Below are positions 31,955 through 64,000 of a stretch of 64,000 nt of DNA, in pieces (within the stretch, counting starts at the first letter, position 1; every line of letters begins with the position of its first letter). The notes below the pieces were generated by a model. It saw nothing but the letters and a program-made list of their open reading frames with translations. It was not told the origin of the DNA and searched no databases. The stretch covers positions 18,650,754 through 18,714,753 of the forward strand of contig OZ316896.1 of the NCBI GenBank assembly GCA_973895155.1. The letters are read 5' to 3'. This DNA is from Marsupella aquatica (Eukaryota; Plantae; Marchantiophyta). Both the position numbers and the translations under genes were made by a program.

Positions 31955-34900
31955 ATGTTCAAGTCATTGAAGAAAAGGGGTGAGAAGGTGAAGGAGAAGG
32001 TAGACTTCAAGTTCACATTTCAGGCTACCAAGGTTCGTGAGTCTCGATTCCCAAATCGTTGTTCTCCCAGAACTGGCATGTGATTTGTGTCCTATCCATG
32101 TGCGAAACTTTCAGATCGTTTCATCAGAGCAGCTTAATTCCTTGTCAACAGTCATCCGAATTCAATGATCTACATTGCTACCCAATAATCTTCTTACTAT
32201 CGTCTGGTCTTCTGCCAGCACCAGTGATATGTCGCAATGTTGGTGTTATGGCTCCTCCCTCTTAACCATGACGGCTAGCGAACAATTGCAATCACACGTG
32301 CAGAAACCTGTTTTTACTTGTTCTCGTGACCCCCATAGGTATACTCTAGGAGCCGTCTACTGAATATGTGTTCTTTTCATCGGGTGCAGGTCCCTCTCTC
32401 AGGATGGGATAAGCTCGTGGTCTCTGTGGTCCCTCTTGAGACGGGAAGGGTGAGCTTCAAAACAACTCGAGTCCCTGTGAAAAGTGGAACTTGCACTTGG
32501 CCTGATGCCGTCATCGAGTCCACTAAGTTGTCACAGGACTTGAAGACGAAAGAATATGACGAAAAACTTTACAAGATCGTCCTCTCATCGGTAAGATGTC
32601 TTTTCTGTTCTCGCTTAAACACGTGACAAGTTGCACACTCTTCGAGACACTAAGAACGGCCCCATCGCGGTTTGAAAATATTGTTGATCCAGACACATTT
32701 TGATTACCGGATGATATGACAATCCTCTCACTGAGTTCACTACCGTGTCCGGACAAAGAACTCACGTACCATTTATTTCTGTGAAGTGTTCCACAAACCG
32801 TTGTAGTCTTGTATGCAATGTTTGATGCCTTAAAGAGGTTTATTAGACTTCTGCTTGATGCGCCTTTTGTTCGTCGATGGTTTCTCATTTCGACGACTAT
32901 AACTCGTTTTCTCGCAAAGCTTTGTGAGATTTCCTTGCACTTGTAAGTCCCTTTAAAGCAGATTCATAGCATAGCTTTGACAACAGCGGAAACGTCATCT
33001 GACATCAAAATGTAATATAGTTCATTGACAACAGCGGAAACGCGATCTGACATCAAGATGTAGTAGTGTATGGACAACTACAGATATGTAACAAGTAACG
33101 CAACTTAGAGTTGGGTTTGACGTATCTTGTAGGGGTTAGTTCTGTTCTCAGGGCCTGGATAGATTGCGTAAGTACAACATAAGGCTCAGAATGTGGATAT
33201 TGGTTGGCCTGGATAGACTTTAATCACTGCACCTCTCTTGGATGGGCGTTTTTGTCAAGCTGATCAAGAGGGTCAAAGTGTAACTTTAGCTAACAGAAGA
33301 CCCGTTGGTACTGGTTTTGCCGGACAGAAGTGGGACTGATGCCCCGAGTTGTGTTCTAGCAGGGTTCGTCTCGTTCAGGAGTCTTGGGAGAAGTCACTAT
33401 CGATCTTGCTGATTTTACAGTTTCCAATAATCCATCTCAGAATTCTCTGCCGCTGAGGAATTGCAATGCAGGGACAATTCTTCATGTAAGTTTTCCACAG
33501 TCTGATCTGGCTGGCCCCTTCTTAACTGGGTTGATTTGAGTTGAGCCTCAAGTGTCTGTCGACATAACAATGAAATCGAATCATTACAATCCGTTCTTGT
33601 GAGTGTACATTTTGGAGAACTGGACTACTTTGTAATCTATGTTTTGACTGCAATCATGATCGAGAGCTCTTTTGTGCAAATTGAAGTTCAAGAGCGCAGA
33701 CTTACCTTGATCGTGGTGATCTTTTGTTCCTTGTGCAGATGAGCATCACCTGCCTCACACCTAGATCGACTTCAGGGTATTTTTCTGTGCCAGTAACCGA
33801 TATCTGCCAACGTAGTCCCTATTAGAATGAAAAATGCGATTAGTGGCTGGTATTCGTCGTCGTTCTACTGTCCGTCGGCAGTCGCACTGATTTTACTCTG
33901 TTCTCTGGTCCTTATATCGAATCAATGGTTTAACTGTCTCAGAATATCTTTGTAGAGAAGCTACTAACATTCTTATATTTTGACAGCCGAGACTCGGGGA
34001 AAACCCGCAAAACAGACCGTAATGAGATTGCTCTAGATGATGATGAAATTCTGAGCGCTTCAGATGAGGACGACTTGGATGATTCAGATCAATCTGGGAA
34101 CCTCACTACTGGCAGTGTAGCATCGAACAATAGTACCCCTGCGCTAAATTTTACAACTCCAACAAAAGTAAGCCACTGGTTGCCAGTTCAGTTCTCGGGC
34201 CGTGTATGGCTTTGCACTTACGTTCTAAACCTGTTATGCAAGATTTTCTAAGCATTATTGTAAGAAATTGTCTGGTAGAACTTACAAGTCCAACTACTGT
34301 AATGCGTGTTCTAGACTTGTGGGTGGATTTCGACTTTCTCTCTTGTGGTTGATATTGTATCATCGGGTCTGGCAGGTCTCGCAGGGTGTAAATGGCCCCC
34401 AAATTAGATCACAAAATGTAAGTCCTAAATTTCCATGACCCATGTGGCTGCGTCAATCTGTGGCGATCACCGAGTCCCTGCCCGATTTTGCTTTCGTTCT
34501 GTTTTGTATTGGTGTAGATTTAAAGTCACCTGCTTAGGAATATTCAATTTGGTCGCAAGTCATTATGTTTTCAGCGATTGGTATGTAGCATGGCTCTAAA
34601 CTTATGAGTGGGTTTTGCACAGGATGGATTTGGATTGCAAAGAAGGCCCAGTAGCGAGGGACTAAATCCCTCAACACCCAGAGGGGGCGGGGGCCAGAAC
34701 GGAAGCCAACGTTCTTCAACATCCGACCTCTCTCCATCCAGTTCTATAAACAGTGGGACAGAAAGAAATGATCAAGGGGGTTCAGGGAGACTGGAGAACA
34801 ACAGGGAGCGAGAAAGGGATAGACCTACTCAGAGGTCTTCTAGTAGTCAGGATTCAAATTATACTGCTGGATCTCTACCCCCGGCGTATGCTAGAGCTTC

Positions 34901-37900
34901 AAGTACTCCTACATCCAACGGTCCCTTGACACCAAATAGTAATGGCAGGTCCAATGGCCGTGGAGAGTGGGCAAGTCAAAGGTCTCGTTTAACTCCAGAG
35001 AATGGCTCCAGCAGGGTTGCCAGCCCATCGACAGACTTAGGCGGGAAAGAAGCGTTGCAGGCAGATCTCACCGCTGCGGAGACAACAATCGAGGAGCTTC
35101 GTCTCGATACTGTTGCAGCACAGAGACAGAATCATAAGCTTAAAATTGAGATTGAAACATTGAAACAGCAACTGGAGTCACACATACGTGACGGAGCTGA
35201 GAATGGGATAGAAATGACCACCCTGGCAGCAGAGCGTGATCGGCTAAAGCTAGAGCTCGATCAGATCAAGTCATCAAAGCTGGCTCTGCAAGAGCGAGAG
35301 AATGGAGAAGGAAATGCTAGGTGGAAGATGGAGGATGCCCAGCGTACCATTCAGGAGCTTCAAGATGAGACGAGGTACCAGAAAGAGCAAAACATAAACC
35401 TCACCATGCAACTCCGCAAGACACAAGATTCCAATATGGAGCTTGTGTTGGCCATTAAAGACTTGGAAGACTCGCTAGAGCAGCAGAAGAAGGAGTCGGA
35501 AGACCTCATCATCTTGAATAATGAGTTGGAGGATAATCTCGGTAGCAAGCAACGAGACTCCTTCACGGAGTTGGAGCAAGAGTGGAAGCTGCGAGTTAGT
35601 AGTTTAGTAGAAGATAAAAGGGTGCTGGAAACCCACATTTTGTCACTGGAAAATGCGCAGTACTCAGCAAAAACGGACGATGAGCATGTTCTGAAGATGG
35701 AGAAAATGATCGAGCAATTGACAAGGGACGTCGAAGATCTAGAGAATGAATCTAAGGAATTGGCGGATGAAAACATGGACCTCTACACGAATGTAGAAGA
35801 TATGAAGAAAGAAATACAATTGAAGTCAACTCTTATCTCTCAGCTGGAAGAAGAGGTAAAGAAGGCGCTACAACCAACTGTTGCTTCGCGTGCTCTTCCT
35901 ACAGAGTCCTCTGAAATGACTGATCTGAGGAATCACGTGAAGGACCTTGAAAGCAGGCTCGCAGCCTCTGAAATTGCATACAACAGTCAGCTTAAGCGAA
36001 GTAAGGGGCATGTAGAACAAATTCAGATTTTAGTGGAAGAATTGCGAACGGCAAACGTGCAGCTGGAAGGACGGTTGGAACATGCGTTAGCGGAGGCTGA
36101 GGGTGCCGCAGGTGAGCATGAGGCCGTCAAGCTGGAATCTGCAAGGTTCCAAAACGAAAGAGATCAGCTGGAGGTCCAGAGAAACGACCTTGAGCGCAGA
36201 CTCGCGGTCGAAATTGAAACTCTGGAGAGGAATTTGGCTGAAGCCAGAGAAGCATTTGCGGCACAAGAACAGGAGCTGAGAACCATAGAAGAGAGTGCCA
36301 ATCGGGCAGAAGAGGAACGTAGCATTGCACTGGACAAAATTGTAGGCTTGGAGGATGACATTTCCAGGCTGAAAGCGGAAACCCGAAGCATTGTTGAAGC
36401 CAAGAGCACAGGTGAGAGCTCTGTCGGTCATCTCCAAATGCAAATGGAAGAGTTGGAGGAGCTGAAGAGAAGTGCCGACGTAGAGTGTTTGAGAATGGGA
36501 GAGAATTTGCGTGACCGTGAAGCAGAAGTCTCCCAGTTACTTCAGCAGGTAGCCTCTCATGTCGCTCAAAGAAAACAGCTCGAGGTAAGTATGGCGGAGC
36601 TAGAAAGAGAGAAATCAGAGTTGCGGAGTACTATACAAGACTCTCTTGAAGAAGACAGGCTCAGCAAGTCACGAGTCGAGGAGCTCGAGTTCCAACTTTC
36701 CTTATTGTCGGAAGAGTTGGACTCTGTGAACTTCGCAAAGCGAGAGTTTGAAGAGCACTCATTAAGATTGGAAATGGAGAAGAGAGAGCTCGAAGCCGAA
36801 AGGAAAGAGTTGGAAATCAAGGTCCGGTCGGTGGAAGGAGAGGACCAAACACGGAAGGACCAGGTCGAGTTGTTGGCAACTGAGCTCGCTACTCTCCGGG
36901 CACAGATGGACACTCAAACAAGCTCCAGAAGGAACTTGGAAAGGCAGAAATCTGAGCTAGAGAGCTCAAAAGATGAGCTATACAACCAGCTCACGGATTT
37001 GGAGGAAGAAAATCTGAAAAACATAGAACGAATTTCTGAGCTTGAAGCACAGGTCAGATTTGTTACAGAAGAGCGAGAGACCCATAAGCTCGAAAGAGGA
37101 ATTCTAGAGACTCGCTCTGTAGATCATGTTACCGAAAGAGGCAAATTGGATACAGCTCTTCAAATAGCAGCGAAGGAACACCAACAAAAAGTATCCAGTC
37201 TGGAATCAAAACTTACACAACTGTTGAAGGAGAGTGAACGCTATAGAAGTTCTCAGGAAGAGCTTCAGGTGCATGCACAGAAACTGGAACAGGATTCTGC
37301 CGGCCATATGGAGTCTGTGAAGGCGATAAAGGAGAGAATTCACAGCTTGGAGAGCATGAATCTTGGATTAGAAGCCAAGTTGCAAGAGATGACCGAGAAT
37401 CATTCTGTGGCATCCAAGACTGTGGCATCGTTGGAGGCAGAGATGGTTGCCCTCAGAGCAGAACACGAAGAGAAGACAGGCAAATTTCTCCTGGACTTGG
37501 AGAATCTGAGGCAATCAAATGGCGAGAGTGAACAGAGAGCCAAACATGGAGAAGAGTCCCTGAGAAGGGCTCGCTGGGAGAAAGCGGCTGCTGTTGAACG
37601 CTTGCAGATGGAAGTGCAACGACTGACAGAGCAGATGACATCAACTAACGACGAAAAAGAGAAGCTGGCATCGGAGGCACTTGTGCAGGCATCGGAGCTC
37701 CGTGCAGAGAAAGGGGAGTGGGAAGAGAGACTGCGGCAAGCGGAAGACAAACTCAAACTGGCAAACGAGGAGAGCACTTCTCTCAAGGCAGAGTACGGCT
37801 CTAGGTTGCAGGACTTAGTGAGTCAAAACGAGGCGTTGAAATCTAGGGAACACGAAACGGTCTTTAAGCTGAGCGAGACTGTCCGGGAATTTGGTGATCT

Positions 37901-40541
37901 AAAAGCTAAAGAGTTAGCTTCAAGGAATCATGCAGAAGACTTCGAAAGGAAGCTGACACTTGTTCTTAATGAGAAAGAGCAATTAGAAGAGGAAGTTGAG
38001 GACCTCAAAATACGAGTACAAGATTCAGAGATGCTTGGTTTTGAAATACAAAGACTGCAGAATACTGTAAGGCAGTTGAAAAGCGAGAGGGATAGCTTTG
38101 ATGATTCTGCTAAGAACCTAAAGATCGTCAATGAGCTCCTTGAACAAGAGAAGGGCCACTTGGAGGAAGATATAACTGCCTGGGAAAAAGAAAATGAAGA
38201 ACTGAAGCATGCGAAGGTTGCCGTCGAGGAAAAGATTCTTCGTCTTCAATTGGAGCTGGAAAGCCAAGGCTCTGCACGATCCCTAGAGGCAGAGCAAAGA
38301 AGTGAGTCCATCAAGCTCCGTCGCCAGAACAGTGAGTTCAAGCGAAAACTAACTGAGTATGAAGAGGAGAAAGAAGAATTTCGAAGGAAAGTACAGCTGT
38401 TGGAGGGAGAACTTAAACAAAGGTCAGAGACGTTAGGACTGGTTGAGAAGAGGCTGAAGGACAAAGATCATGATGAGTATGGAAGACCAATCAGCAATGG
38501 CGGTAGTCCTGGCTTTCTTCAAAGATCACTTTCCAGGTCTAACAGTAAGATTAATCCTATGGGCTCACCGTCTCGAGACACGAAGGAGATGAATGAGATG
38601 CGCGAGAAGATGAAATTCCTTGAGGTACTTGATGTCGTAATTTGCACATCTGGCAAGTTTCCTGTTTCTCTAGAGTTAGTCTCTTCTAGACTTCTTCCTG
38701 TTATTCGTAGAACTGAATAGGAATAAGCTGTGGTGGGAGAGAGACTTACCACCATTTTCTGCAGGCTGATCTTGAGTTGAAGGCTACGGCATTGGATACA
38801 CTGAAGAAGGACTTCAGTGCAAAAGAGTCAATTTTATACAAGAAAATTGAGCTATTGGAAGGGGCCAATGAACAGCTTGTTCAAGGCGGCCCTGATTTGG
38901 GCATGGATCATCAACTGCAGATGGAGGTACTTTTATTCTTCAATGTCTACATTCAGCTGGAATTGTAATTATTATTTAAGAGGGGAGTAATGATGTTTGC
39001 TATTTGAGTCACGATGTGAGTTTTAGATGTGGAAGATCCTAGCTTGTACACTCAATGTGGCTCTCAGGCATGTCACCCAGAGGTATGAGCACCGACGTCG
39101 TGGCTGGTTGAGACACCGATGCATAGACATGAGTTTTCGCTGGAGCCTTCTGTCTCGATTCAAGGCGTCTTATTCACTAGAGTGCTTTGTGTGCATGTAT
39201 ATCTGTCATGGGCAGTTAGTACACTTAGCATGGCTAAATGTACTAAATGCCACCGTTATTTCTTTCTCCTTAGCTGGGGTTCCAAAGACGTAAATTCAAT
39301 CCAGTAGAATTGTTTCTAGAATGAGAGTAGTCATAAGTTGGAAAGCGAGTGGTTTCCACTGAGAAAAAATCCATGGAAGTATGCCGCGTAGGTATCGAAA
39401 GGATTCCCTAAAGGTCCTAGAGAGTTGTATACCTTAGTCATTGAGCAGTGGTAAAAGTTGTGCAACTTTTTAGTAGGAGCAACCTGTGGCTGGGTTCCAA
39501 ATTTCTTTCATTCAGAATTAACGTCAACTTTTGAGACATATGAGCCGCTCGTGAGTTCTGATGTAGAAAGTATGAATTTGCTGTGCAGTTGACAAGGCTG
39601 CAAAACTTGAATGGCCTGTTATCTCGCCGAGAGCGAGAGCTATTATCTCAATTGAGTACCCAGGAAGTGCTTCATAAAGAAGTCCAGAGACTGCAAGAGG
39701 TATTGTCCTCATCACAAACGAATCGCCTCTCATATCTTTACTTTCAGTCAACCTTTCTTGTGAAAAGTGTGAACGTCCCTTAGTCCATCCTGTCTGGAAG
39801 GGATTAATCAGATACTTAAAGGGTGATAGGACGTGCAAGCTTAGGGCTTACAGTTCTTTCCTTGCCCTATTGGAGAATGGAAATATGTAGATGCATTGTA
39901 GATTAATCACGTTCACAACAATCAGGGTGCATCTATTTTGGTGTGGAGTTGGCTTCAATTTCTGGATATGATTATCAACCCTGACCACGTGATTAAGGCT
40001 TTTGGAATTTGATGTGATGCAACAGGAAAATGAGCAGCTTGAGATTCGTTTCACCAGATTTAAAGATTCCACCAAGATCGGGAATATTGCGGAAAGAATG
40101 CTCTCTTTAGAGACGGAATTGACTGAAGCTATGGAAGCCAATGCGATGTATAAAATGCAACTACAGAAGTAAGTAAATCTCTGGTATCAATTGCTTAAGA
40201 CTTTAAGTTGCAGTGAGGACTTCAGAGCTTTGCTTATAAGCACACAATCATGGTCTGTGGTGATGAGCAACATAAGACTAACGAAGGCTTCTTCTTTTGG
40301 GTGTAGTGCTTTCGCCAAGCAGCATAATGTTCAAGCAGCTGCACTGCAGAATTATGGGGATGTGGACCAGATCATCGGTGAATTAGTTCGGTTTAAAACC
40401 AAGGCATCAAAGTCAGAGGAGGATGTCAAAGATTTACGTGAGCGTTACACGACGATGAGTTTAAAGTATGCTGAAGTTTCATCTCAGAAGGAAGAACTAA
40501 TCATGGCCCTTCGAAACTTGCGGAATGGCAAGAAATCGTAA
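31955..40541 (+). CDS. NT-C2 (EEIG1/EHBP1 N-terminal C2) domain protein with long coiled coil (plant myosin heavy chain-related family)
   Basis: Exons 31955-32032, 32390-32590, 33363-33485, 33739-33776, 33987-34167, 34376-34417, 34623-38624, 38765-38926, 39589-39699, 40026-40168 and 40307-40541 are all GT-AG and in frame. NT-C2 motifs: KVDFKFTFQATKVP..GWDKLVVSVVP..GTCTW..GSSRSGVLGEVTIDLADF..LPLRNCNAGTILH. Family motifs: LQLRKTQDSNxELVLA and the C-terminal LETELxEAMEANxMYKxQL...ERYTTMSLKYAEV. Confidence 0.9.
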
Positions 40542-43850: not shown

Positions 43851-44289
43851 TGTTGAGCATAGACGACGATCGCAACGGCAAGCCCATGAACCATCCAACG
43901 CACAATAGTCGACACAAGAGATACGTGGTTCACCTCCTTGAGGTTACGTCCACGGGAACACACAAGAGAGCTTTACTGAACTCTAAGCCCGTCGGCTATA
44001 CCGAGTCTCCACAGTGTAAGCTCTCCCTATCTCTCAAGTGGCTCCATAACAATGAGCCTTGGTTCTACCTCTCCAAGCACACATGCCTCTTATGATATAG
44101 TGTGCAACTTAGTTGTACCTAACCACATAGTTGTACCTAACCACATAGTTGTACCTAATCACGTAGTTGTACCTAACCACATAGTTGTACCTAATCACGT
44201 AGTTGTACCTAACCACGTAGTTGTACCAACCCACGTTGTTGTACCAACCACGTCATACCTAACCTAGACGTAAGAGTAAATACCCAACA
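43851..44289 (-). repeat. 3' LTR of copia element
   Basis: TGTTGAGC...ACCCAACA. Matches 49943-50381 except T43944 vs C50036 (the only difference seen). Confidence 0.97.
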
Positions 44290-44300
44290 ATCTTCCCCTT
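44290..44300 (-). other. Polypurine tract
   Basis: Minus strand AAGGGGAAGAT immediately precedes the 3' LTR. Confidence 0.9.
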
Positions 44301-44480: not shown

Positions 44481-47400
44481 CTACTTGTGATGCAATTGCA
44501 AAACCTGCAATACGTCACGGTGTCTAGAGAAACTCTCCAAAGGAATCACTTTGGTAAATGCGTCAGCCGGGTTGAGTTTACCATCAATCTTGACTAGCTC
44601 AAACAAATTATCAGACACAGCCTGCCTGATAAAATGGTACCTGACGTCAATGTGCTTCACTCTGCTGTCCATCACCTGGTTCACAGCAAGGTGGAGCGCA
44701 CTTTGACTATCACAATGGAGCTTCACATTCCCCTGTGGCAATCCCATTTCAGTGATAAGTCTATCCAACCAAATCGCTTCCTTTGCTGCTTCCGCAGCTG
44801 CAACATACTCCGCTTCTGTAGTAGACTGAGCAATACACTTCTGCAAAGTAGACCTCCAACTTATGCATCCACCGCCAAGTGTGAACACGTATCCTGTTGT
44901 TGATCTCCTTCGGTCCAAATCTTGTCCATAGTCAGAATCTACATAGCCAATCAATGATCTAGCATTCTTTGCATTCGCATCAAATAAAAGACCATGATCC
45001 ACGGTACCCTTCAAGTACCTGATAATCCACTTCACTGCTTCCCAGTGTACCTTCCCTGGATTCGACATGTACCTGCTCACCTTGCCCATAGCCATGGCAA
45101 GATCAGGTCTAGTGCAAGTCATCAAATACATGAGACTCCCCACTGCCTTGTCATATGGAACCTTTGACATCAACCCCTTCTCTGTGTCATCCGTAGGACA
45201 GAACGCTGATGATAACTTGAAGTGTGGAGCCAACGGGGTACTTACTGGCTTGCTATTCTCCATGTTGAACCTTGCAATTACCTTCCTCGCATAACTGCTC
45301 TGCGTCAACCATAGTTTGCCAGCCTCCAAGTCCCTAGTGATCTCCATACCCAAAATCCTCTTAGCTGGCCCTAAGTCCTTCATCTTAAACTCTGCACTAA
45401 GCAGTGCCTTGAGCTTAACAATCTCAGACCTATCCTTGGCTGCAATTAGCATGTCATCCACATAAAGTACTAAAACAATGAACCCAAAGACAACATTCTT
45501 CACCGGTTTCAAATACACACAAGGGTCAAATACACTTCTGTGAAAACCTTGTGACCGAATCCAATCGTCAAACCGCTTGTTCCACTGTCTTGGTGACTGC
45601 TTCAACCCATACAAGGATTTCAGCAATCTGCAAACCAATTCCTCCTGTCCTCTCTTCACAAAACCTAGCGGTTGTCTCATGAAGATCACCTCTTCCAATG
45701 TGCCATAGAGGAAAGCTGTGACAACATCCATCTGATCTAGGAGCAGACCAAACATTACAACAAGTACACACAATAGTCGTATTGTAGAGTACTTAGCAAC
45801 TGGTGAGAAGACCTCATTGTAATCCACACCTTTCTCTTGTGTGAATCCCTTTGCTACCAATCTAGCCTTGTAGACCTTCGATCCACCTCCTATGGAATTA
45901 TCCTTCAGCTTGTAAATCCACTTGCTGTCCACCACTTGCTGACCCTTAGGCAGCTTAACAAGCTCCCAAGTTTTGTTGTCCTTTAGTGACTGCATCTCCG
46001 TTTGCATTGCTGCAGTCCACTTCTGCTTCTCCTTTGAAGCACTTGCCTCATGAAATGAAGAAGGTTCTCCTTCTTCCAAAATTAACGCATCACCCTCATC
46101 ATCAGCTGTAAAATCATCCTCTTGCAGTTGAGATGAATCAACCCACTGTCCATACCTTGATGGAGCGCGTACAGTGCGACCAGATGTTCTTCTAGCCGAT
46201 GACTCCGGTTGATCTGCGTGTGCTGGTACAATTTGAAGCTCAACAACATCCACTTGCTGCTCACCAGCATCAACAAACTCCTCTGGTTCCTCTGGCACAG
46301 GAACCAGCTCCATAATTGGAGCAACTCCTTCTCTCCGGTCATGCACCTCATAACCAATCTCCCCCTCAACGAGATCCGGGATAGGAGATTTTCCTTTGTC
46401 AGTACGGGAGACCTGAGTATTCTCCCCCTCCTTCAATAATCTGGATTCATTGAAGGAAACATTCCTACTGACAACGAGCTTACAGGCAATAGGATCCCAT
46501 AGCCTATAGGCTTTCACACCACTCTGGTACCCAAGAAAAACACATTTCCTGGAGGTAGGATCCAACTTGGTCCTATTCTGCTTTGGTGTGAGAGCATATG
46601 CATCACTTCCAAAAATTACCAAGCCATGATAGTCTGCTTGCCGCTTATAGCGCATCTCAAACGGCGTTTTGAAATTGATAGCACTAGAAGGAGAAAGATT
46701 TACCAAATAAGCTGCGGTATTGACAGCTTCTGCCCAAAATTCTTGTGGTAAACCTGATTGGCTCAACATACTCCGTGACCGCTCCAACAGTGTCCGATTG
46801 AGCCTCTCAGCGACACCATTCTGCTGCGGAGTATAAACTGTGGTGAGATGGCGAGTTATCCCCTGTTCTGAACAGTACTCTTCAAATTCCATTGAAGTGT
46901 ACTCCCCGCCATTGTCTGACCTCAGACTCTTCACCCTTGTATCCAAACACTTGATCGTGTTTCCAGTCTGATTCTCCACCTGGGCCTTCCACTTCTTAAA
47001 AATGGACAAGACATCAGACTTATGCGTCATGAAATAAATCCACACAAATCTTGAGTAATCATCAATAAATGATACATAGTACAACTTTCCAGAGTGTGAG
47101 GGAGTCGGGGATGGACCCCACACGTCACTATGTATGTACTCAAGAACCGCTTTGGAACGATGAGTTCCAACACCAAAAGCACGACGATGCTGCTTTCCAA
47201 GAATGCAATGCTCACAAAACTCTAATTTACAAGATTGCAAATCAGAAATGAGTCCATTCTTCCGTAAGATAGCCAAACCCTTCTCACTCATGTGGCCTAG
47301 CCGTGAATGCCACAGTTGAGTCATCTCCTCGTGAGACTTGGTTACATTGGCCTCTCCACATACAGTATTGCCCTGTAACACATACAAATTCTTTTGTCTA

Positions 47401-47753
47401 CTCCCCTTCAAAATCACTGTCTCTCCCGACCTGACTTGAAGTTCACCATCAATAACGCTCCATTGATGACCATTTGAATCCAACACACCGAGTGAAATCA
47501 GATTCTTACGCATGCCAGGTACATACCTGACTCCGGACACTGTGCGCACAGCGCCATCAAACATTTGAATCTTCACAGACCCAATTCCCTCAATTTGACA
47601 GGAGTGATCATTTCCCATCAGAACTGAACCGTTTGAAATAGAGTAAGAACTGAAAAACTCACGAATGTAACAAATATGAAAAGAGCAAGCACAATCAAGA
47701 ATCCACACATCATCTGCTCTCCTAGATGACGTGCACAGGGCATACCCCCGGCT
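44481..47753 (-). CDS. pol: Copia Pol (protease, GAG-pre-integrase, integrase, RT, RNase H)
   Basis: Motifs WILDCACSFH (PR), LWHSRLGH..CEHC, HSDVWGP, RSDNGGEY, QNGVAER, KARLVAKG, YVDDML, DSDY, AEYVA and KHIDVRYHFIR. The frame is open from the codon right after the gag TGA, and there is no in-frame ATG before the protease motif. Confidence 0.95.
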   Translation of the reverse strand, partial: SRGYALCTSSRRADDVWILDCACSFHICYIREFFSSYSISNGSVLMGNDHSCQIEGIGSVKIQMFDGAVRTVSGVRYVPGMRKNLISLGVLDSNGHQWSVIDGELQVRSGETVILKGSRQKNLYVLQGNTVCGEANVTKSHEEMTQLWHSRLGHMSEKGLAILRKNGLISDLQSCKLEFCEHCILGKQHRRAFGVGTHRSKAVLEYIHSDVWGPSPTPSHSGKLYYVSFIDDYSRFVWIYFMTHKSDVLSIFKKWKAQVENQTGNTIKCLDTRVKSLRSDNGGEYTSMEFEEYCSEQGITRHLTTVYTPQQNGVAERLNRTLLERSRSMLSQSGLPQEFWAEAVNTAAYLVNLSPSSAINFKTPFEMRYKRQADYHGLVIFGSDAYALTPKQNRTKLDPTSRKCVFLGYQSGVKAYRLWDPIACKLVVSRNVSFNESRLLKEGENTQVSRTDKGKSPIPDLVEGEIGYEVHDRREGVAPIMELVPVPEEPEEFVDAGEQQVDVVELQIVPAHADQPESSARRTSGRTVRAPSRYGQWVDSSQLQEDDFTADDEGDALILEEGEPSSFHEASASKEKQKWTAAMQTEMQSLKDNKTWELVKLPKGQQVVDSKWIYKLKDNSIGGGSKVYKARLVAKGFTQEKGVDYNEVFSPVAKYSTIRLLCVLVVMFGLLLDQMDVVTAFLYGTLEEVIFMRQPLGFVKRGQEELVCRLLKSLYGLKQSPRQWNKRFDDWIRSQGFHRSVFDPCVYLKPVKNVVFGFIVLVLYVDDMLIAAKDRSEIVKLKALLSAEFKMKDLGPAKRILGMEITRDLEAGKLWLTQSSYARKVIARFNMENSKPVSTPLAPHFKLSSAFCPTDDTEKGLMSKVPYDKAVGSLMYLMTCTRPDLAMAMGKVSRYMSNPGKVHWEAVKWIIRYLKGTVDHGLLFDANAKNARSLIGYVDSDYGQDLDRRRSTTGYVFTLGGGCISWRSTLQKCIAQSTTEAEYVAAAEAAKEAIWLDRLITEMGLPQGNVKLHCDSQSALHLAVNQVMDSRVKHIDVRYHFIRQAVSDNLFELVKIDGKLNPADAFTKVIPLESFSRHRDVLQVLQLHHK

Positions 47754-48788
47754 TCATAAAACATACTCATCATTGAGTAAATCAGCTTCTCCATCAGCCC
47801 TAGCCACATTTGCCGATGAAGTTTCCGTTGCCTTTCCCTTACAGTCTCGCTTGAAGTGTCCAACTTGGTTGCACTTCCAACATGTCACCTGCCTCCTCTG
47901 AGGGGATTTACCCTTGGACTTAGATCTGGATTTAGATCTAAACTGGGTTCTACGGTCCCCAGTTGGTCGCTGCATACTCCTCCCACGGTTAACATTGAGG
48001 GCAGCACCAGATGATGAAGGCTGTGACGTGATGTGCATCTTCTGCTGAAGATCATCACTAAGCAGAGAACTTATCACATCATTGTATGAAATGGTATCCC
48101 TATCACGATGCAACAACACTCGTGATAGGGACTGGTAAGATGGAGGCAATGAACTAAGAAGCTGTAGAGCCTTCGTCTCATCATTCAAAGTCTCCCCAAG
48201 GTTTTCCAAGTCAACGACCATGTCGTTGAAAGCATCCACATGGTCTTGCAACTTCGTACCAGATTCCTTCATCCTGAAACTCATCAGTTTGTAGGAAGTG
48301 TAGAGCCAGTTCGACAACTCCTTGCGGTGATACTTGCTCTGCAATTCCGCAAATAAGGACATGCAATCCTTATGTGCACCCAACTGCTTGATGATGGGAG
48401 GCATGAGATAGAGTGTAACACACCACACTCCCTGCTCCTGCATGCGGTCCCATTGTTTCTCATCAACATCGTCTTCACGAGGGCTCAGCAGTTGGCCCAT
48501 CCCTGACGCATAAAGCACTCCCTTCACCTGCTTCTCCCATAGCAAGTAGTCAGAGCGCCCATCATACTTTGTCACTTCATACTTGGGTCCCCCAAGCTTG
48601 AAAGTCCCCATCTTCTTCTTTACCGTGAGCTCCGGTAGTAGTACTGCTTCCTCCACCACACGCCGCACCGGTGATGGTATCGGTGTCACGTGCTCTTCCT
48701 CCTGCTCCTCTCTCTGCCCCTGAAACCTCCGCGGTGACCCTCGTGCTTCAAGTTCCACATCTTCGAAAAACTCCTCCGAATCACTCAT
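47754..48788 (-). CDS. gag: Copia Gag (344 aa) with acidic N-terminal extension and CCHC zinc knuckle
   Basis: ATG at 48788 (MSDSEEFF...), KYEVTKYDGRSDYLLW, LLSSLPPSY and CWKCNQVGHFKRDC. It ends in TGA at 47756-47754. Confidence 0.93.
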   Translation of the reverse strand: MSDSEEFFEDVELEARGSPRRFQGQREEQEEEHVTPIPSPVRRVVEEAVLLPELTVKKKMGTFKLGGPKYEVTKYDGRSDYLLWEKQVKGVLYASGMGQLLSPREDDVDEKQWDRMQEQGVWCVTLYLMPPIIKQLGAHKDCMSLFAELQSKYHRKELSNWLYTSYKLMSFRMKESGTKLQDHVDAFNDMVVDLENLGETLNDETKALQLLSSLPPSYQSLSRVLLHRDRDTISYNDVISSLLSDDLQQKMHITSQPSSSGAALNVNRGRSMQRPTGDRRTQFRSKSRSKSKGKSPQRRQVTCWKCNQVGHFKRDCKGKATETSSANVARADGEADLLNDEYVL

Positions 48789-49928
48789 ATGAGAAAGCCA
48801 CAAAAAATGTTGTTTTTCACAACTTCTCAAAAAACTCGAAACTCAACACCGCCGCGTAGCCCACAAAGCTAGGAGTCCAATACTGAAAACCGAAATCAAA
48901 ATCGAAATTTGACGGAAAAGTTATTCAAATTTCGGTCGAGGTGGGTAAAACCTTGGGAAACTCCCCCGTTTTGACCACCTCAGGGAATAACCGAAATACC
49001 AAGTACAACCCGTTGTCGGAATTGCGATGTGATTGGTGCGCTGCATTGCCAACTTCAATGGCTACGACCTCGCCGAAAAATAACCAAAAAAGTTACCGTT
49101 CGGCGGATGAAATCTTTGTCGGACGGTCAAAAAATAGCTCTCTGGTTTTTTGGAATATTCTATGACCCTTGTACAGGCCCTGTGGGAATTTTGGAAGAAC
49201 AATCGAGGGGCTGACATGTGTCCTCGAACCCCCAAAATCCCCTACCACCCTTCGTCGTCGAAATCTGGTCGCGCGCGCAGAAAATACACACGGCAGAATG
49301 TACCCCTCGACACCAAACGCAAGATATCTCACTCGGGTTTTGACTAAATCAAGATCCGATTTCAGATTTGGAAACTAGACTCCGAGGTGATGAAGATCGA
49401 TATAAGAAGCACCCAAAACGAGGAAAGAACGAGGGAGAAAAAAATTGGTAAAGATGACAGATTTCTCTCAATTGCCATAGCCAATTTCGAATCAGTTTTT
49501 CAAAGAGAAAAAAATGGTACCTTGTCAACAACAAATGTTGATCAATTGCACTTGGTGCCGTCACCAAGTCCAACAAGGTAATTGATTTTGCTTAGCCTTC
49601 CTCTTTGCATCAAAGAGCCAATCCCGGACTCAAAAACAATCGTCTTGCCTCAATCTCTCCGTTGAGTCAAAACACTTGACGCTTCTCCCTCTGAGTCGAT
49701 TGCCAACTTTCTTCACAAAATCCAGAACGACGAAAACTTAGATCTCTCTGCACCACGAGCTCCGTTCAACGATTTCTTCACACCGTTAGAAAGCTCTTGC
49801 CCTGATCTATCCGTTGAGCCCATAAACTCCAAGTTCCATGCGATGGAACTCTGGAAAATCCACCAACACTCAACGCTGGAAAAACCGTCATGAAATCCCG
49901 TCACGAACACACGTCACCTCCCAAGCAT

Positions 49929-49940
49929 GCTCTGATACCA
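49929..49940 (-). other. Primer binding site (tRNA-iMet)
   Basis: Minus strand TGGTATCAGAGC, 2 nt after the 5' LTR end. Confidence 0.95.
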
Positions 49941-49942
49941 AT

Positions 49943-50381
49943 TGTTGAGCATAGACGACGATCGCAACGGCAAGCCCATGAACCATCCAACGCACAATAG
50001 TCGACACAAGAGATACGTGGTTCACCTCCTTGAGGCTACGTCCACGGGAACACACAAGAGAGCTTTACTGAACTCTAAGCCCGTCGGCTATACCGAGTCT
50101 CCACAGTGTAAGCTCTCCCTATCTCTCAAGTGGCTCCATAACAATGAGCCTTGGTTCTACCTCTCCAAGCACACATGCCTCTTATGATATAGTGTGCAAC
50201 TTAGTTGTACCTAACCACATAGTTGTACCTAACCACATAGTTGTACCTAATCACGTAGTTGTACCTAACCACATAGTTGTACCTAATCACGTAGTTGTAC
50301 CTAACCACGTAGTTGTACCAACCCACGTTGTTGTACCAACCACGTCATACCTAACCTAGACGTAAGAGTAAATACCCAACA
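49943..50381 (-). repeat. 5' LTR of copia element
   Basis: 439 bp, TG...CA, adjacent to the PBS. Confidence 0.97.
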
Positions 50382-50542: not shown

Positions 50543-53500
50543 TAGCCACAAAACTTGACTACCCTGGCTAACACTTAGCTCCGGAGTCGCTGACTCCAAC
50601 GCCAAGCTCCTCTATGGTCCAGGCTTCTAAAACGGTCATCCGATGGGGACTAAGTATGAGGAGACTAGTGGGCAACAAAGTGTTGCACTAGCAAGGGCAA
50701 TGCGCTAAGCTAGTGACGCAAACTAAGGACTTAGACTAGTGTGGCAGCTGGTCGGGTCATGGGAAGGGTCGGGCTCAGGGTGGGCCGTCCGAACCCCAAG
50801 ACAGACTGCGAGTTTTGAGGGCTTGAGTGAGAGCTCCTCTCAAGCCCAAGGCTAAGGAATTTTACTTTGATGCGCAACGAACGTTTGACGCATGAGATAC
50901 AGCGCCGCGAAGGTGTGGCAGTTCGGGACACCCGATCGACGACGGGTTCTGAGGGCCTAGGCATGAGCATTGGGTTGGCTTGATTACACGGGCTATGGCA
51001 CTTCACTTAAGGATGTCTAGCTAGAAAATTATGGGCATACCAAGTTAGTTGTGTGTCCATGTGATTGGGTTAATGTCCAGGGTGAGAGCCAAATGTAGGG
51101 ACCAAAGTTGGTTCAGGGATGACACGTCTCTAGAAGCATATATGAGGAGAGTGGTGTCTCCCTGAGGGCCAAGGGCAAACCCAAGTCGTGAGCCGCGGCG
51201 GTCGCAATATTAAGGAGAAACGTCAAATAGAAATGGCGATAATTTCTCAACGGGAAATCCGTCGGAGGACTTCTTGGATGCATTGGAAATCTCTTGAGGA
51301 GGACTACATTCTACTGAGCTCAACTAGGTCTTGGGGATGCCTTTGGGTCTTGAGGTTTGCGGGGGCTATCTCGCCCACTTGCCAAATCTTGCCAAAATAA
51401 TAGCCAAGTCGCGTTAAGTTTCCCACAAAAGCTTGAGTTGGGAAGGCAATACAGAGTAGGCATGGGTGTTGAGGTCCAAGTGCATTTGGCTCCTAGACTC
51501 TCAGTTGGTGGAACCTTGGAGATGGTTGCTAGAGTCGGGGCCAAACTGGTCTTGGCATTTGGACAAGCTTAGGGAGCTAGCTATTTGGGTCATGAGCAGA
51601 TCCTCGGGGTAGGGCATCAGCAAGTGACAGATAGAAAGTGGGAATCACAAGAGGCACCCGGTAGAGTGGTTGTTCTAGACGAGCAGTGGGTGTTGGCTTT
51701 GGCTTTGGCTTTGCCTTATGGCAAGGCCACGCAGGACCGGGAGGTTTTATTTGCTGACCTACTTACCAATGTCTGTTTGAGCTTGAGTCAAGACACTAGT
51801 CTTGAAATTCCTAGATCCTGATGGGTTACTTACCTAGGTGTTTGGTTGATTGTGCAAATAGTGAGGACTGTTGAGTGACGCCCTTGTTAAGGAGCAAGTG
51901 CGGCTTTGTATGGGGGTGACCATTGGTGGTGCTAGAGGTACCAAGTTACTTGCTCAAGGAATTCCGTGTAGGCGTTCAGGCACCAAGGACACTTAAGCAA
52001 GAGTGTTGGGATTGGTGAGGGCGTTGGGTGGCTAGGTCCACCACTATTCGAGCCACTATTTGGCACGCCATTGCCCATACCATCCATCGATGACAAGCAA
52101 CTTCAATTCAATCAAATGCACTTTGCTCCTGTAAATAGTTTGATAGCTAATTGCTCATGAAGAGCATACATTTCGCGTCAAGCTTTCAAATTGTTTCTTG
52201 GGCACTTTGTGGGGTAAAGTTTCAACTGGTTCTTTGTGGAATTCACATCCCAACTCTCAATTTGAACTAGAACATTGAAGTGTTGGTTGGCAGTTTTAGT
52301 GGGTAACCGGTGGGGTATAATACCGGCATTGGGAACATGGTCGGTTGCATGCATCCAAAGGGACTTGCCACTTTAGGTGATAGCAAGGCACTTTGTCATG
52401 CACCGTTGGGAGTGCTCTAGTTGCGGAACTTGACTACCTTAACACTTAGCTTTGGCGTCATTGACTCCGACGCCGAGCTCCCCTATGGTCCAAGCCCAGA
52501 ATGGTCACTCGGGGAGGGCTTAGCATGGGGAGACTTGTGGGCAATGGGGCATGGCACTAGCAAAGGCAAGGCGCTGAGCTGGTGGCACACACTAAGGACT
52601 TAGACTAGCCAAAGGCTGGTCGGGTCAAGGGGAAAGGGCCGGGCTCAAGATCGACCGCCCGGACCCCCGGACAGACTTTGAGTTATGAGGGCTTGAGTGA
52701 GAGCTCCTCTTGGGCCCAAGGCCAATGGAGTCGACTCCATGGGCAACGGACGTTTGGGGCTCGAGTTATGGCCCGATCGGGGATCCTGGGCGACGATGGG
52801 ATCTAAGAGCCTAAGCATGAGCACTAGGTTGGCCCAATCACAACGGGCTAGGCACTCTGCTTGCGGACGCCTAACTAGAAAGTTATGGGCATTGCCAGTT
52901 GGTGGCGGGCCTAAACATGTGGGTTGGGGTCCAAGTGAGGGGCCAAAATTTGGGGACCAAAGTTGGTCCGAGGGTGGCAGGCCTCTAGAAGCATATATGA
53001 GGGGAGTGGTGTCTCCCTGGGGGCTAAGGGTGAGCTAAAGTCGTGGGCCGCGACGGTCATGACACTAAGGGAAAACGTCAAAGAAACGACAATAACTTGC
53101 CAACGGGAAGTCCGTTGGAGGACTTCTTGGGTGCGTTGGAAATCTCTCAATGAGGGCTATGTCCTCCTGAGCTCAGCTGGGTCTGGGGGCGCCATAGGTT
53201 CTTGGGGTTTGCAAGGGCTATCTCGACCGCTTGCCAATTTCTGTCGAAACAGCAGCCAAATCGCGTTCAATCTCTCAAGGGAGCTTGCGTTGAGGAGACC
53301 GGGCCAAGTAGGCATGGAGGATGAGTTCCAAGGCACTTGGCCCCTAGACCATCAGTGGGGCGAGGACCGGGAGTTGGTTGCTAGAGTCCTGGCTAGAGTC
53401 GAGCCCATTCTGGTCCCGGGTGTGTTGGGACAAGCTTGGGACAAGCTTTAGGACAAGTTACTATTTGGGCCATGAGCATGTCCTGGGGGCAAGGCGGTCA

Positions 53501-53918
53501 GTTGATGATGGATAGGTACGAGAGGGAACGCGGACCGCACCCAAGGAAGGAGCTATTCTAGACAAATAGTGGGTGTCAATTTTGGTTTCGACTTATGGCA
53601 TCGGGAGGACCTATCGCTGACCTATTTACCAATGTCTATTGAGTTTGAGTTAAGATGCTAGACTTGGGAGATCTAGATCCTAGAGGGGTTACTTACCGAA
53701 ACGCTTGGTTGCTTGTGCAGACAGTGAGGACCGTTGAGTAGCGGTCGAGTTTAGAGACAAACGCGGCTTTGTATGGGAGGGGCCACAGACGGTGCAAGGA
53801 ACACCAGGTTACTTGCTCAAGGTATTTTGTGGAGACGTTCGGGCACCAGAGGCACTTATGCATGGGTGTTGGGATTGGTGAGGGCACTAAGTGGCAAGGT
53901 TCATCACTGCTCTTAACA
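50543..53918 (+). mobile_element. Pair of diverged ~1.5-kb direct repeats (~50543-52055 and ~52418-53918); probable old LTRs of an internally deleted Ty3/gypsy-type element
   Basis: The copies are colinear along their length (e.g. AACTTGACTACC, CTAAGGACTTAGACTAG, TCTAGAAGCATATATGAGG, GTTACTTGCTCAAGG) and end in an aligned CA. The first copy is followed by TTTGGCACGCC (Arg-tRNA PBS-like). No TSD was found. Confidence 0.6.
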
Positions 53919-60195: not shown

Positions 60196-60691
60196 TAGGG
60201 CGTCTCAACCCTGCGCGTTTTAGGACTCCTTCAGGTCACCCGGATGTCTCTGGTCGCCGCCCGATATTGAACACCGGTACCCAAAATCGGGTCCCAAAAA
60301 ACCGGGGGTCTGAACTTTATCTCGCACCTAAAAGGAGTCCCGGCACTGGTTAGACCTGGGTTTTTCCAAAGCAAAATTAGGGCGTCTCAACCCTGCGCGT
60401 TCTAGGACTCCTTCCGGTCACCCAGGATGTCTCTGTCGCCGCCCGATATTGAACACCGGTACCCAAAATCGGGTCCCAAAAAACTGGGGGTCTGAACTTT
60501 ACCTCGCACCTAAAAGGAGTCCCGGCACGGGTTAGACCTGGGTTTTTCCAAAGCAAATTGTAACCAAAAAAACCCGGTAAAAACTTTTCGGTCACCAAAT
60601 CGGTGGGCTGACCACCTGATCCGGGCGGCCCGCGACTGTGAAATCCCGGGTGCCATTTGGAATTCCAAATGCTTAAGTTTGAGACGCCCTA
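60196..60691. mobile_element. hAT-like MITE (60378-60691) with a duplicated left 182 bp (60196-60377)
   Basis: TIR TAGGGCGTCTCAA at 60196 and 60378, inverted TTGAGACGCCCTA at 60679-60691. The interior is rich in CCGG/ACCCGG motifs. The same TIR sequence occurs at 12873. No TSD was found. Confidence 0.7.
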
Positions 60692-60849: not shown

Positions 60850-63800
60850 GTAGAGAATATTCCAAAAAAATATAGAGTTGTTTTTTGGCCGTTAGTCAAA
60901 GAGACCAAGCACTGAATGGTAACTTTTTTGGATCTTTTTTGACAAGGACGTAACCACTGAAGCTAGCAATGCGGCGCACCAATCGAATTGCAATTACGAC
61001 AATGAGTGGTACTTGGCATTTTGGTTATTCCATGAGGTGGTCAAAATGGGGGAGTTTCACAAAGTTTTGCCCACCCCAACCAAAATTTGAATAACTTTTT
61101 CATCGGATTTTAATTTTGATTTTGATTTTCAGTGTTGGACTCCTACCTTTGTGGGCTATGCGATGGTGATTAATTGAGTTTTTTGAGTTGTTGCAAAAAA
61201 CAACATTTTTTCGTGATTTTCTCATATGAGTGATTCGGAGGAGCAATTCGAAAACATGGAACTTGAGGCACGAGGATCATCACAGGAGTTGGAGGTGGAG
61301 ATAGCAGAGCAGGAGGAAGAACACGTGACATCGATACCATCATCGATGCGGCGTGTGATGGAAGAAGCAGTTCTACTACCGGAGCTAACGGTAGTGCAAA
61401 AGAAGATGGGAACATTCAAAGTTGGGGAACCCAACTTGTATGAAGTGACAAAGTTTGATGGGCGCTTTGACTACTTGCTTTAGGAGAAGCAAGTGAAGGG
61501 AGTGCTCTATGCTTGGGGAATGGGCCAACTACTGAAGCCTCGTGAGGACGATATTGATGAGAAATGAGATGAGAAAGATTGGGAGGCCATGCAAGAGCAG
61601 GGAGTGTGGTGTGTTACACTTTACCTCATGCCTCCCATCATCAAGCAATTGGGTGCACATAAGGATTGTATGTCCTTGTTTGTGGCAGAAGAAGTATCAC
61701 CACATGGAGTTCTCGAATTGGCTCTACACTTCCTACAAACTGATGAGTTTCAGAATGAAGAAAATTGGTACAAAGTTGTAGGATGCTTTCAATGACATGG
61801 TCGTTGACTTGGAAAACCTTGGGGAGGAACTTGATGAGAAGAAGGCATTGCAACTTCTCAGTTCATTGCTTTCATCTTACCAGTCCTTATCACAAGTGCT
61901 ATTGCATCGTGATAGGGATACCATGTCATATAGTGATGTGCTAAGTTCTTTGCTTACTGATGATCTTCAAGCCTTCATCATCGACTGGTGCTGCCCTCAA
62001 TGTTAACCGTGGGAAGAGTATGCAACAACCAATTGGAGACCGTAGAACCCAATTTAAATTTAAATCTAGATCTAAGTGAATGGACAAGTCCTCGGTGTCA
62101 TAAGGAAATTAGACTATATGGGGAATAGTTTAGTTTTGTGTGAAAATATAAAAGTAGAGATTTCTATGGTAACAAGTAGATTTTGACTTCTACCAAAGTA
62201 AAATTATAAGTATTGGTAATTTTTAGGAATTACCATAGTAACAAGTAATTTCTAGAATATATCATAATAAAAAAGTAAATTTTGGTAACTTTTAATGTCA
62301 TAGTAAATAGTAAATTCTTAAATTTACCATAAAAAAAAGTAAATTTTGATAACTTCTAGAGTTTATCATAGTAATAAAATAAGTTCTAGAATTTATTGTG
62401 GTAAAAAAGTTAACTCTAGTAAGCTCTAGTAATTTCTAGTATCTTCTAGGATACTCTTGTAAAGGGACCAACGTGGTCTGGCTCCAATTATAAATCTATT
62501 TTCTAGCATTTCAAACGTATGAGTGCGAGGATAGAGAGTGTATAGAGTGTATAGAGTGCATAGAGTGCATATTGTGTGCATTAGATTTACATTAGAGGAA
62601 TGCCTGAACATCGATTCTAGGACTAAATAGAATGTCTATGCCACCGGTTTCTATGGTGGAACGGATCTAAGTTTCCTAATTCTTGGTCATGGAAGGCATT
62701 GCCACCACTTGAGTACCTTGAGGATGGAGCTTTGAATTTGGCAAGGTCGGCTATGCCGCCAATACCATAAATATAATGTCTACAAACCTGTGCTCAAGTA
62801 GGAACGGCTCTGTCGCTAAACCTATCTTAGAAAATATATAGAAAGTATGAATGTCAATATTGATTTGAATGAGAGTCCGCAAATTCTAAACTTACGTTCT
62901 ACGGTGAGAATTAAGTTGATAGTAAAGAGGAAGATAGATATTAGGCAGGTTCTTACATAGAAGTTTGGAAAAGAAGGATACATACTGCAGTTATCGCATC
63001 GTCAAATCCATTAATACTCTATAGATGTACAAATGAGGATGTGAGTGTTTTTATAATAGTGTAATAGATGAGAGATCATAGTCGAGAGGGGGAAAGAAGT
63101 ACGTAGAGAAGATTATCACTTGGAGGAGATATTTGTGGAGCGTTGGCCTGACCCCGACTACTCTGGTGTTATTGCCAATAATTGGAGTTGATCACACATA
63201 TCTCTTGGTACCAAAAGTGCTTAGGAGTCCTTGCGAAAAAGGGTAGGCCATTCCCATGCAATTTATCTGGAGAAAACGGCAAGAGGCACAGGGTAACCCA
63301 AGGAACTTGAGAAATGGTCGGGAGAGGACAAGGTTCTCAGTCAATGAAATTGGTTCTAAGCATGAGGTCTCTTACAAGTGGTGAATAGCATAATTAGCAT
63401 ATGCAGCTAGACACCCGACGTGTTCTTGAGAGCTTACTATTCCCATGACACCGGAGAGGAGGCAGATGACATGTTGGAAGTGCAACAAGGGAGGACACTT
63501 CAAGCGAGACTGTAAGGGCAAGGCAATTGAGTCTTCATCGGTCAATGTGGCTAGGGCCAATGGAAAAGATGATTTACTCAATGATGAGTATGTTTTATAA
63601 AACCAAGGGTATGCCCTAGATGCACTTCATCTAGGAGAGCAGATGATGTGTGGATTCTTAATTGTGTTTGCTCTTTTCACATTTGTTACATTTATGAGTT
63701 TTCAATTCTTACTCTGTTTCAAACGGTTTAGTTCTAATGGAAAATTATCACTCTTGTCGAATTGAGGAAATTGGGTCTATGAAGATTGATGGCGTTGTGT

Positions 63801-64000
63801 GCATAGTGTCTAGAGTCAAGTATGTACCTGATATGCATAAGAATTTAATTTGACTCAGTGTATTGGATTCAAATGGTCATCAATATCTGAGCATTATTGA
63901 TAGTGAATTTCAAGTCATGTCGGGATAGACTAATTTTGAAGGGGAGAAGACAAAAGAATTTGTATGTGTTGTAGGGCAATATTGTATGTGGAGAGGTCAC
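60850..64000 (+). mobile_element. Decayed copy of the same copia family (leader, gag, start of pol); no 5' LTR seen; runs off the window
   Basis: The leader is colinear with the reverse complement of 48790-49170. Gag starts MSDSEEQFENMELEARGS at 61226 and contains QEQGVWCVTLYLMPPIIKQLGAHKDC, CWKCNKGGHFKRDC and then the PR remnant. Many stops and frameshifts are present. Confidence 0.92.
62096..63450. mobile_element. Solo-LTR-like insertion (1355 bp) in gag of the decayed copia
   Basis: Termini TGTCAT...ATGACA with flanks TCGG / CCGG. Removing the insert plus 4 bp restores KSPERRQMTCWKC, compared with KSPQRRQVTCWKC in the intact copy. Confidence 0.85.

Follow-up and report, generated by a model that had tools for sequence, protein, structure and literature searches.

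The window analysed here, a stretch of 64,000 nucleotides of the liverwort Marsupella aquatica (assembly GCA_973895155.1, contig OZ316896.1, 18,650,754 to 18,714,753), harbours on its minus strand an intact Ty1/copia retrotransposon, in which gag and pol share one reading frame interrupted by a single stop codon. The parts of the element are listed below, with positions counted from the first letter of the window.

50381-43851, minus strand: Ty1/copia element, 6.5 kb, intact
50386-50382 and 43850-43846: TSD ATAAT, 5 bp, flanking both LTRs
49943..50381, minus strand: 5' LTR, 439 bp, TG...CA, carrying an 18-bp tandem array
49929..49940, minus strand: primer-binding site
48789..49942, minus strand: leader, 1.15 kb, with 8 upstream ATGs
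47757..48788, minus strand: gag ORF, 344 aa, Retrotran_gag_2 and zf-CCHC, C-terminus DLLNDEYVL
47841..47882, minus strand: CCHC zinc knuckle, ending 28 codons ahead of the stop
47754..47756, minus strand: in-frame UGA at the gag/pol border, context UUA-UGA-AGC-CGG
47736..47750, minus strand: predicted small 5-bp hairpin, absent in the divergent relative L001
47704..47735, minus strand: 12-bp stem with 8-nt loop, beginning 18 nt past the stop, candidate readthrough stimulator
47679..47686, minus strand: proposed pseudoknot partner for the stem loop, unsupported
44481..47753, minus strand: pol ORF, 1090 aa, open, in the copia order protease-integrase-RT
47696-47694, minus strand: protease catalytic Asp, pol codon 20
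44290..44300, minus strand: polypurine tract, adjoining the 3' LTR
43851..44289, minus strand: 3' LTR, 439 bp, differing from the 5' LTR at one base

The structural features expected of Ty1/copia elements are all present, namely, LTRs with TG...CA ends, a TSD, a primer-binding site, which we take to be of the tRNA-iMet type, and a polypurine tract. Pfam matches along the element (PF14223, PF00098, PF22936, PF13976, PF00665, PF25597 and PF07727, in this order) give the domain order Gag-PR-IN-RT with RVT_2, the RNase H end of pol was recognised by eye, and the ESM Atlas identifies the Gag as a streptophyte copia Gag. An earlier note on this DNA had called the element very young, in agreement with the single difference between its LTRs and with a pol that is intact over 1090 codons. 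The 8 upstream ATGs of the leader open ORFs of 4 to 51 codons; a leader intron, shunting or an internal start may be needed for Gag to be translated. The 18-bp repeat occurs in 8 copies per LTR (44110-44253 and 50202-50345), possibly representing promoter elements.

In other respects, the window carries two host genes on the plus strand, one coding for an F-box/LRR protein (16112-18007) and the other (34608-38720) consisting of an open frame of 1370 codons that has no Pfam match and whose Atlas look-alikes suggest a coiled coil. A degenerate direct duplication with a spacing of about 1.86 kb, of which five blocks are 76-81% identical, occupies 50631-53908. Two 182-bp tandem copies, 96% alike, lie at 60196-60557, just upstream of a second, decayed element.

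At the gag/pol junction, the minus strand reads as quoted in the earlier note: gag (48788-47757), a single TGA (47756-47754) and pol (47753-44481) follow one another in one frame, and the protease motif is preceded by no ATG, the first post-stop in-frame ATG being located at 47618 (codon 46), compared with codon 20 for the catalytic Asp. A general code in which UGA stands for Trp was ruled out, since the gag-pol frame contains 24 TGG codons against 1 TGA. Selenocysteine and A-to-I editing were set aside on the general background of land-plant biology. The junction is collinear with that of fused gag-pol relatives. The spacing between knuckle and Asp is 48 residues (in 46 fused relatives it ranges over 23-59, with median 46), and therefore includes no added spacer or intron; furthermore, the post-stop peptide aligns with the pre-protease hydrophobic segment of these relatives. 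As for the context of the stop, UGA-AGC fits none of the readthrough types I, II and III, as described in the accessible text of PMC13517186.

A decayed copy of the element, on the opposite strand of the same window, offers a first comparison:

60854..64000, plus strand: second copy, decayed, 81-86% identical; insert of 1.4 kb at ~62078-63454
63598-63600, plus strand: TAA, at the same codon as the TGA
63621-63652, plus strand: stem of the second copy, 11 of 12 pairs

That this older copy has a stop at the same codon and keeps most of the structure had been noted before, and both observations hold. The TAA counts for little as evidence, because the copy is decayed and its changes are dominated by G>A (63 substitutions in the junction block, including 25 G>A and 16 C>T), so that the TAA fits a mutated TGA.

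A more informative relative was found among metagenome contigs, in which one of 79 loci (L001, Gag 51% identical) belongs to the same clade, the remaining 78 being distant elements with no stop fixed at this site. The L001 junction reads CTA TGA AGC CAG, and pol follows in frame, ungapped across 34 codons, 24 of which are identical as protein to those of the window (14 of the first 20). Codon identity amounts to 9/13 in the first 20 post-stop codons compared with 65/160 in gag (one-sided p 0.044, for a stretch picked after the fact). L001 is the one divergent relative in which the stop letters and the pol frame are seen at the DNA level. Contigs from sequencing runs add a loose contig end in run X1 reading TGA-AGC-CAG, and two contigs of X8, from another organism, which align over 47696-47771 with 11 and 13 differences and no indel among those listed; across four runs, no indel is listed within 47681-47960. 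In the run contigs aligned to the window, none of 40 variant rows out of 80 falls on 47754-47756, and a second contig comparison reported variants for 47726-47746 only. One X1 contig skips 47621-47757, which we read as a deletion because its ends are not GT-AG. Among the sequencing runs listed as carrying the sequence there is no RNA run, which says nothing about expression either way. Viral contigs yielded no relative from the clade, the one match covering 19 residues of the knuckle only, and the contigs of prokaryote genomes yielded none either.

The wider distribution of the stop was assessed on Gag proteins, gathered by a Gag search (37 proteins) and a profile search (of which the best 150 matches were considered). 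The close set, defined by at least 40% identity over at least 100 aa, comprises 52 proteins; 23 of them, mostly fragments, lack a knuckle by the pattern used and were left uncounted, leaving 29 (40-81% identical). Twenty-six of these stop 22-44 residues past the knuckle at an acidic motif of the D/E-x-x-L type, for example LLNDEYVL, LLDDDYAL or NENQDYVL, a pattern composed after the tails had been seen. Independently of this pattern, none of the 29 continues into protease. The three exceptions are P0018, which has a different 16-residue tail, P0020, which is short and whose cluster-mate goes on to DLLDDQYAL, and P0023, from Marchantia, whose gene model leaves out the protease. No close fused gag-pol form was found among proteins of 603-2000 aa, where the 10 matches are all 25-33% identical. 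A Gag tree of 81 rows was built with the IQ-TREE quick method only, after the fused proteins had been thinned from 96 to 46. The 25 stop-ended rows and 3 damaged ones, gathered by likeness to the query Gag, group in a single clade (SH-aLRT 98), and all 46 fused rows fall outside it. The named records in this clade are from Calypogeia fissa and Marchantia polymorpha, and the Gag end is common to proteins down to 40% identity in at least two liverwort genera. Outside the tree sampling, a Pol fragment of Riccia fluitans is 61% identical, the highest value among the 120 Pol matches listed.

The protein ends of relatives reveal neither the identity of the stop codon nor the frame of pol. As judged from these ends, the in-frame stop is a trait of the clade and not a nonsense mutation, and the Gag end shared by the relatives, together with the single Gag clade, takes it beyond chance and supports a stop that is programmed rather than accidental. 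The earlier note had reasoned that recoding would fall if most young copies carried a sense codon at this site; checked on the Gag relatives, where 0 of 29 are fused, it is not refuted. The underlying concern was that the stop is a nonsense mutation common to a lineage that is non-autonomous and complemented in trans. As the evidence comes from relatives and the window, an autonomous fused partner might exist in the same host, and variants at the stop could sit in the other 40 of the 80 variant rows. Against this, the Gag end is shared down to 40% identity in at least two liverwort genera, two protein searches found no close fused relative, and pol has all its 1090 codons intact, with conservation past the stop. 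The trans-complementation reading is largely refuted by these comparisons, and we regard it as highly improbable.

Two further features concern Gag ends. Seven distant Gags (P0199, P0202, P0227, P0268, P0271, P0279 and P0311; 24-31% identical) end about 27-34 residues past the knuckle, mostly at acidic-hydrophobic motifs, and are placed outside the well-supported clade; they may represent chance stops or independent gag-stop lineages. Within the window, the Gag end D-E-Y-V-L resembles the segment just past the stop, G-Y-A-L (47765-47733, minus strand), and the deepest member of the clade has a Gag end, D-E-V-L, that is Tork-like. A short duplication of the pre-protease segment may have accompanied the origin of the stop.

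The protease region begins shortly after the stop. In a predicted model, it displays a retropepsin-like fold from residue 34 on (Z 7.8, rmsd 3.4, 104 aligned), and alignment to HIV-1 protease puts Asp42 opposite residue 25, in a register extrapolated from the offset of the aligned ranges. The residues just before the stop were considered as the first strand of the protease, an idea not supported in view of an AlphaFold monomer pLDDT below 50 for residues 11-31. A PDB sequence search returned nothing relevant, and Foldseek gave no match at E 0.001 or better. The active-site triplet is D-C-A (47696-47688, minus strand), with D-S-A in L001 and D-S/T-G or D-S/T-A in nearly all fused relatives; D-C-A looks like a family trait, because the decayed second copy shares the Cys codon.

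If the stop is a property of the clade, the question is how Pol is made. A minor splice might remove the stop and join gag to pol in frame, and according to the accessible text of PMC5580714, plant copia elements use the spliceosome around the protease region. In the window as well as in L001, the letters after the UGA are AG, and in-frame GT-AG candidates of at least 60 nt number 30 in the window and 10 in L001. However, the top-scoring candidate introns are U-poor (20-30% U), with donors matching U1 at no more than 6/9 positions, and the eight best candidates of each sequence share no donor-acceptor pair, the sole common acceptor being AAG. The donor-like word GTATGT of the window is not kept, because Gag C-termini vary around D-x-A/V/I-L, and the collinearity of the junction with fused relatives equally speaks against an intron. 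Splicing is, in our opinion, quite unlikely.

A route that avoids decoding the UGA, by a bypass as in Tca2, reinitiation, a non-AUG start or an internal promoter near the junction, has in its favour that the UGA-A context is not among the known leaky types. Moreover, the junction of Tca2 had a minor promoter, and its local sequence directed no readthrough in S. cerevisiae reporters (accessible text of PMC2194720). Near-cognate codons CTG, ACG and GTG do occur in frame between the stop and the protease motif. Of these, however, only the GTG directly ahead of W-I-L-D is common to L001, in which CTG has become CTT and ACG has become ACT. A start at this GTG would leave four residues ahead of the Asp, to be compared with a model that puts Asp42 opposite residue 25 of HIV-1 protease. 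Besides, Pol in retroelements is packaged through its Gag part, and free Pol from an internal start would come without it. We hold such routes to be unlikely. Readthrough of the UGA appears as the most likely route, because the junction is collinear, the candidate introns are U-poor and unshared, and the near-cognate starts, except GTG, are unshared.

With regard to RNA structure, the 12-bp stem with 3 G-U pairs at 47735-47704 is present as previously described. The 57 nt from the stop fold as the 5-bp hairpin followed by this stem (-22.4 kcal/mol, z -3.41), whereas longer windows are unremarkable (z -0.40 for 87 nt and z -0.98 for 121 nt); 13 of 1417 ORF windows are equally stable, three of them at the junction itself. 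When the same peptide is recoded synonymously, 66 of 3000 sequences equal the pairs of the window and 52 of 3000 its fold energy. The stem of L001 keeps 11 of 12 pairs, with a compensatory change from U-A to A-U at the closing pair, a change from U-A to U-G at another, and G-U replaced by U-U. For L001, the pairing is equalled by 305 and the fold energy by 115 of 3000 synonymous recodings. A 41-nt fold contains the stem (z -2.94), whereas the minimum-energy fold of 57 nt of L001 has another structure (z -0.98). The covariation sample consists of three sequences, with 11 of 12 pairs kept and one compensatory change. Among contigs of the same family, two stem changes are common: G-U becomes A-U at 47730 (12% of X1 depth), and at 47714 a C-G pair is lost (8% of X1 contig depth and almost the whole of the sparse X2 coverage). 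The main stem modestly exceeds chance, and we see an even chance that it acts as a readthrough stimulator. Its start at +22 lies further from the stop than those of the MuLV, VEEV, Sindbis and CTFV stimulators, given as +12 to +16 in the accessible text of PMC13517186, and Rfam returned no match near any gathering score.

The other two structural elements proposed earlier fared less well. The small hairpin is missing in L001, and it would sit inside the mRNA channel of the ribosome (11-12 nt, accessible text of PMC13517186). The loop of the 12-bp stem can indeed pair over 8 nt with 47686-47679, 17 nt further on, as far as base complementarity goes. However, such a match is not special, since 90 of 4271 ORF windows match equally. 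In L001, the one relative compared, the loop forms no more than 5 pairs, and these in a different register; in the run contigs, 13% (X1) and 18% (X2) of depth carry a synonymous change by which one pseudoknot pair is lost. An H-type pseudoknot at the junction is unlikely.

Taken together, these data identify a real in-frame UGA at the gag/pol border, shared across the clade, whose context is unusual and which is followed by a plausible stem. Its best explanation, and a rather probable one on sequence grounds, would be that Gag-Pol is made by programmed readthrough of the UGA at a level of a few percent. Most ribosomes would stop at the UGA and release Gag, and the few percent that insert an amino acid, likely Trp, would go on to make protease, integrase and RT, possibly aided by the stem-loop 18 nt downstream. 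The Trp analogy is based on tobacco, where decoding of UGA as Trp was measured (accessible text of PMC2754532). Readthrough would replace the splicing by which single-ORF plant copia elements obtain excess Gag. Of the stop-codon recoding proposed in the earlier note, the stop itself is borne out as fixed in the clade; for the readthrough, we infer it as the simplest route to Pol.

The excess of Gag over Pol in plant retrotransposons is known mainly from splicing in single-ORF copia, as far as the accessible text of PMC5580714 goes, and a clade with a fixed in-frame UGA would represent a second, translational route to it in plant copia. If confirmed, this would be, as far as literature searches show, the first plant retrotransposon in which readthrough between gag and pol has been measured, and if a simple stem does make UGA-A leaky, a new plant readthrough signal would be added. 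Because the clade has Marchantia members, the signal is directly testable in a model liverwort. Furthermore, annotation pipelines will call such intact elements broken or mis-splice them, as in Marchantia P0023, and active families are therefore undercounted.

Concerning its lineage, the element resembles the Tork lineage (Tnt1/Tto1 group) by its 5-bp TSD, its tRNA-Met-type primer-binding site and its size within 4.2-8.8 kb, features common to many lineages. Its nearest Pol relatives are single-ORF angiosperm and conifer elements, mostly 48-56% identical over residues 1-330 and up to 63% in RT. Their protease motifs are Tork-like, the lineage label being taken from the motif rather than from a labelled reference set. 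In contrast, the Gag is only 25-35% identical to those of single-ORF fused relatives, and the single gag-pol ORF that prevails in Tork is not found here; REXdb (PMC6317226, Additional file 5) records a single ORF in 128 Tork elements (69%), with no stop layout given. The clade seems closest to Tork, and the element is classed here as Tork-related and not as Tork proper. One tentative scenario, which we rate as possible though on the doubtful side, is that a Tork-related liverwort copia clade swapped its splice Gag switch for readthrough at UGA-AGC with a 12-bp stem, once and long ago.

A stop between gag and pol is no novelty in plants, since REXdb (PMC6317226) gives GAG:stop:PROT as the layout of 22 elements of SIRE copia (10%) and a single gag/protease stop for the gypsy lineages Tekay (10%), Athila (12%) and Chlamyvir (80%); for Bryco and Gymco, the layout is given as 'not determined'. 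What is new here is a Tork-like copia clade in which the UGA is fixed and its context belongs to none of the three standard readthrough types. No description of a gag-stop-pol layout in Tork-like or liverwort copia was found in full-text literature, mostly outside subscription journals, and the accessible text of a P. patens TE paper (PMC7466625) mentions only transcriptional readthrough. SIRE elements, like this one, are plant Ty1/copia with a single in-frame stop between coding regions, and suppression of a pol-stop-env junction is described for SIRE1 (accessible parts of PMC2829016 and PMC2194720). However, the gag/pol stop is a minority layout in SIRE and fixed across the clade here. Sireviruses have a large Gag with a central knuckle, a AGGGGGAG PPT 10 bp before the 3' LTR and multiple linker PPTs, whereas the knuckle of the present element is terminal, its 191-nt linker contains no AGGGGGAG PPT, and it measures 6.5 kb with no extra ORF.

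Outside plants, Tca2 (pCal) of Candida albicans is likewise a Ty1/copia element whose gag and pol share a frame across a UGA, with an RNA structure predicted 3' of it; in this fungal element, the spacer is 8 nt of purines and the pseudoknot is bulged (accessible text of PMC2194720), in contrast to a plant element with an 18-nt spacer and a simple stem that is kept. MuLV shares the in-frame stop at the gag/protease border and a downstream RNA structure, but uses UAG-G with an H-type pseudoknot at +12 and a measured readthrough of ~5-8% (accessible parts of PMC2194720 and PMC13517186), whereas the liverwort element, known from its sequence, has UGA-A, a stem at +22 and no conserved pseudoknot. 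Among Ty3/gypsy elements, rice RIRE2 is cited as a candidate readthrough case in the accessible text of PMC2754532. The fission-yeast elements Tj1, Tcry1 and Tosmo1-3, also Ty3/gypsy, resemble the liverwort clade in having a clade-wide in-frame TGA with conserved neighbouring bases, though in the type II context GAA-TGA-CT and not UGA-AGC; for this group, a single-ORF ancestor has been proposed, and the stop of Tj1 is required for transposition (bioRxiv 10.1101/2022.12.06.519325, accessible text).
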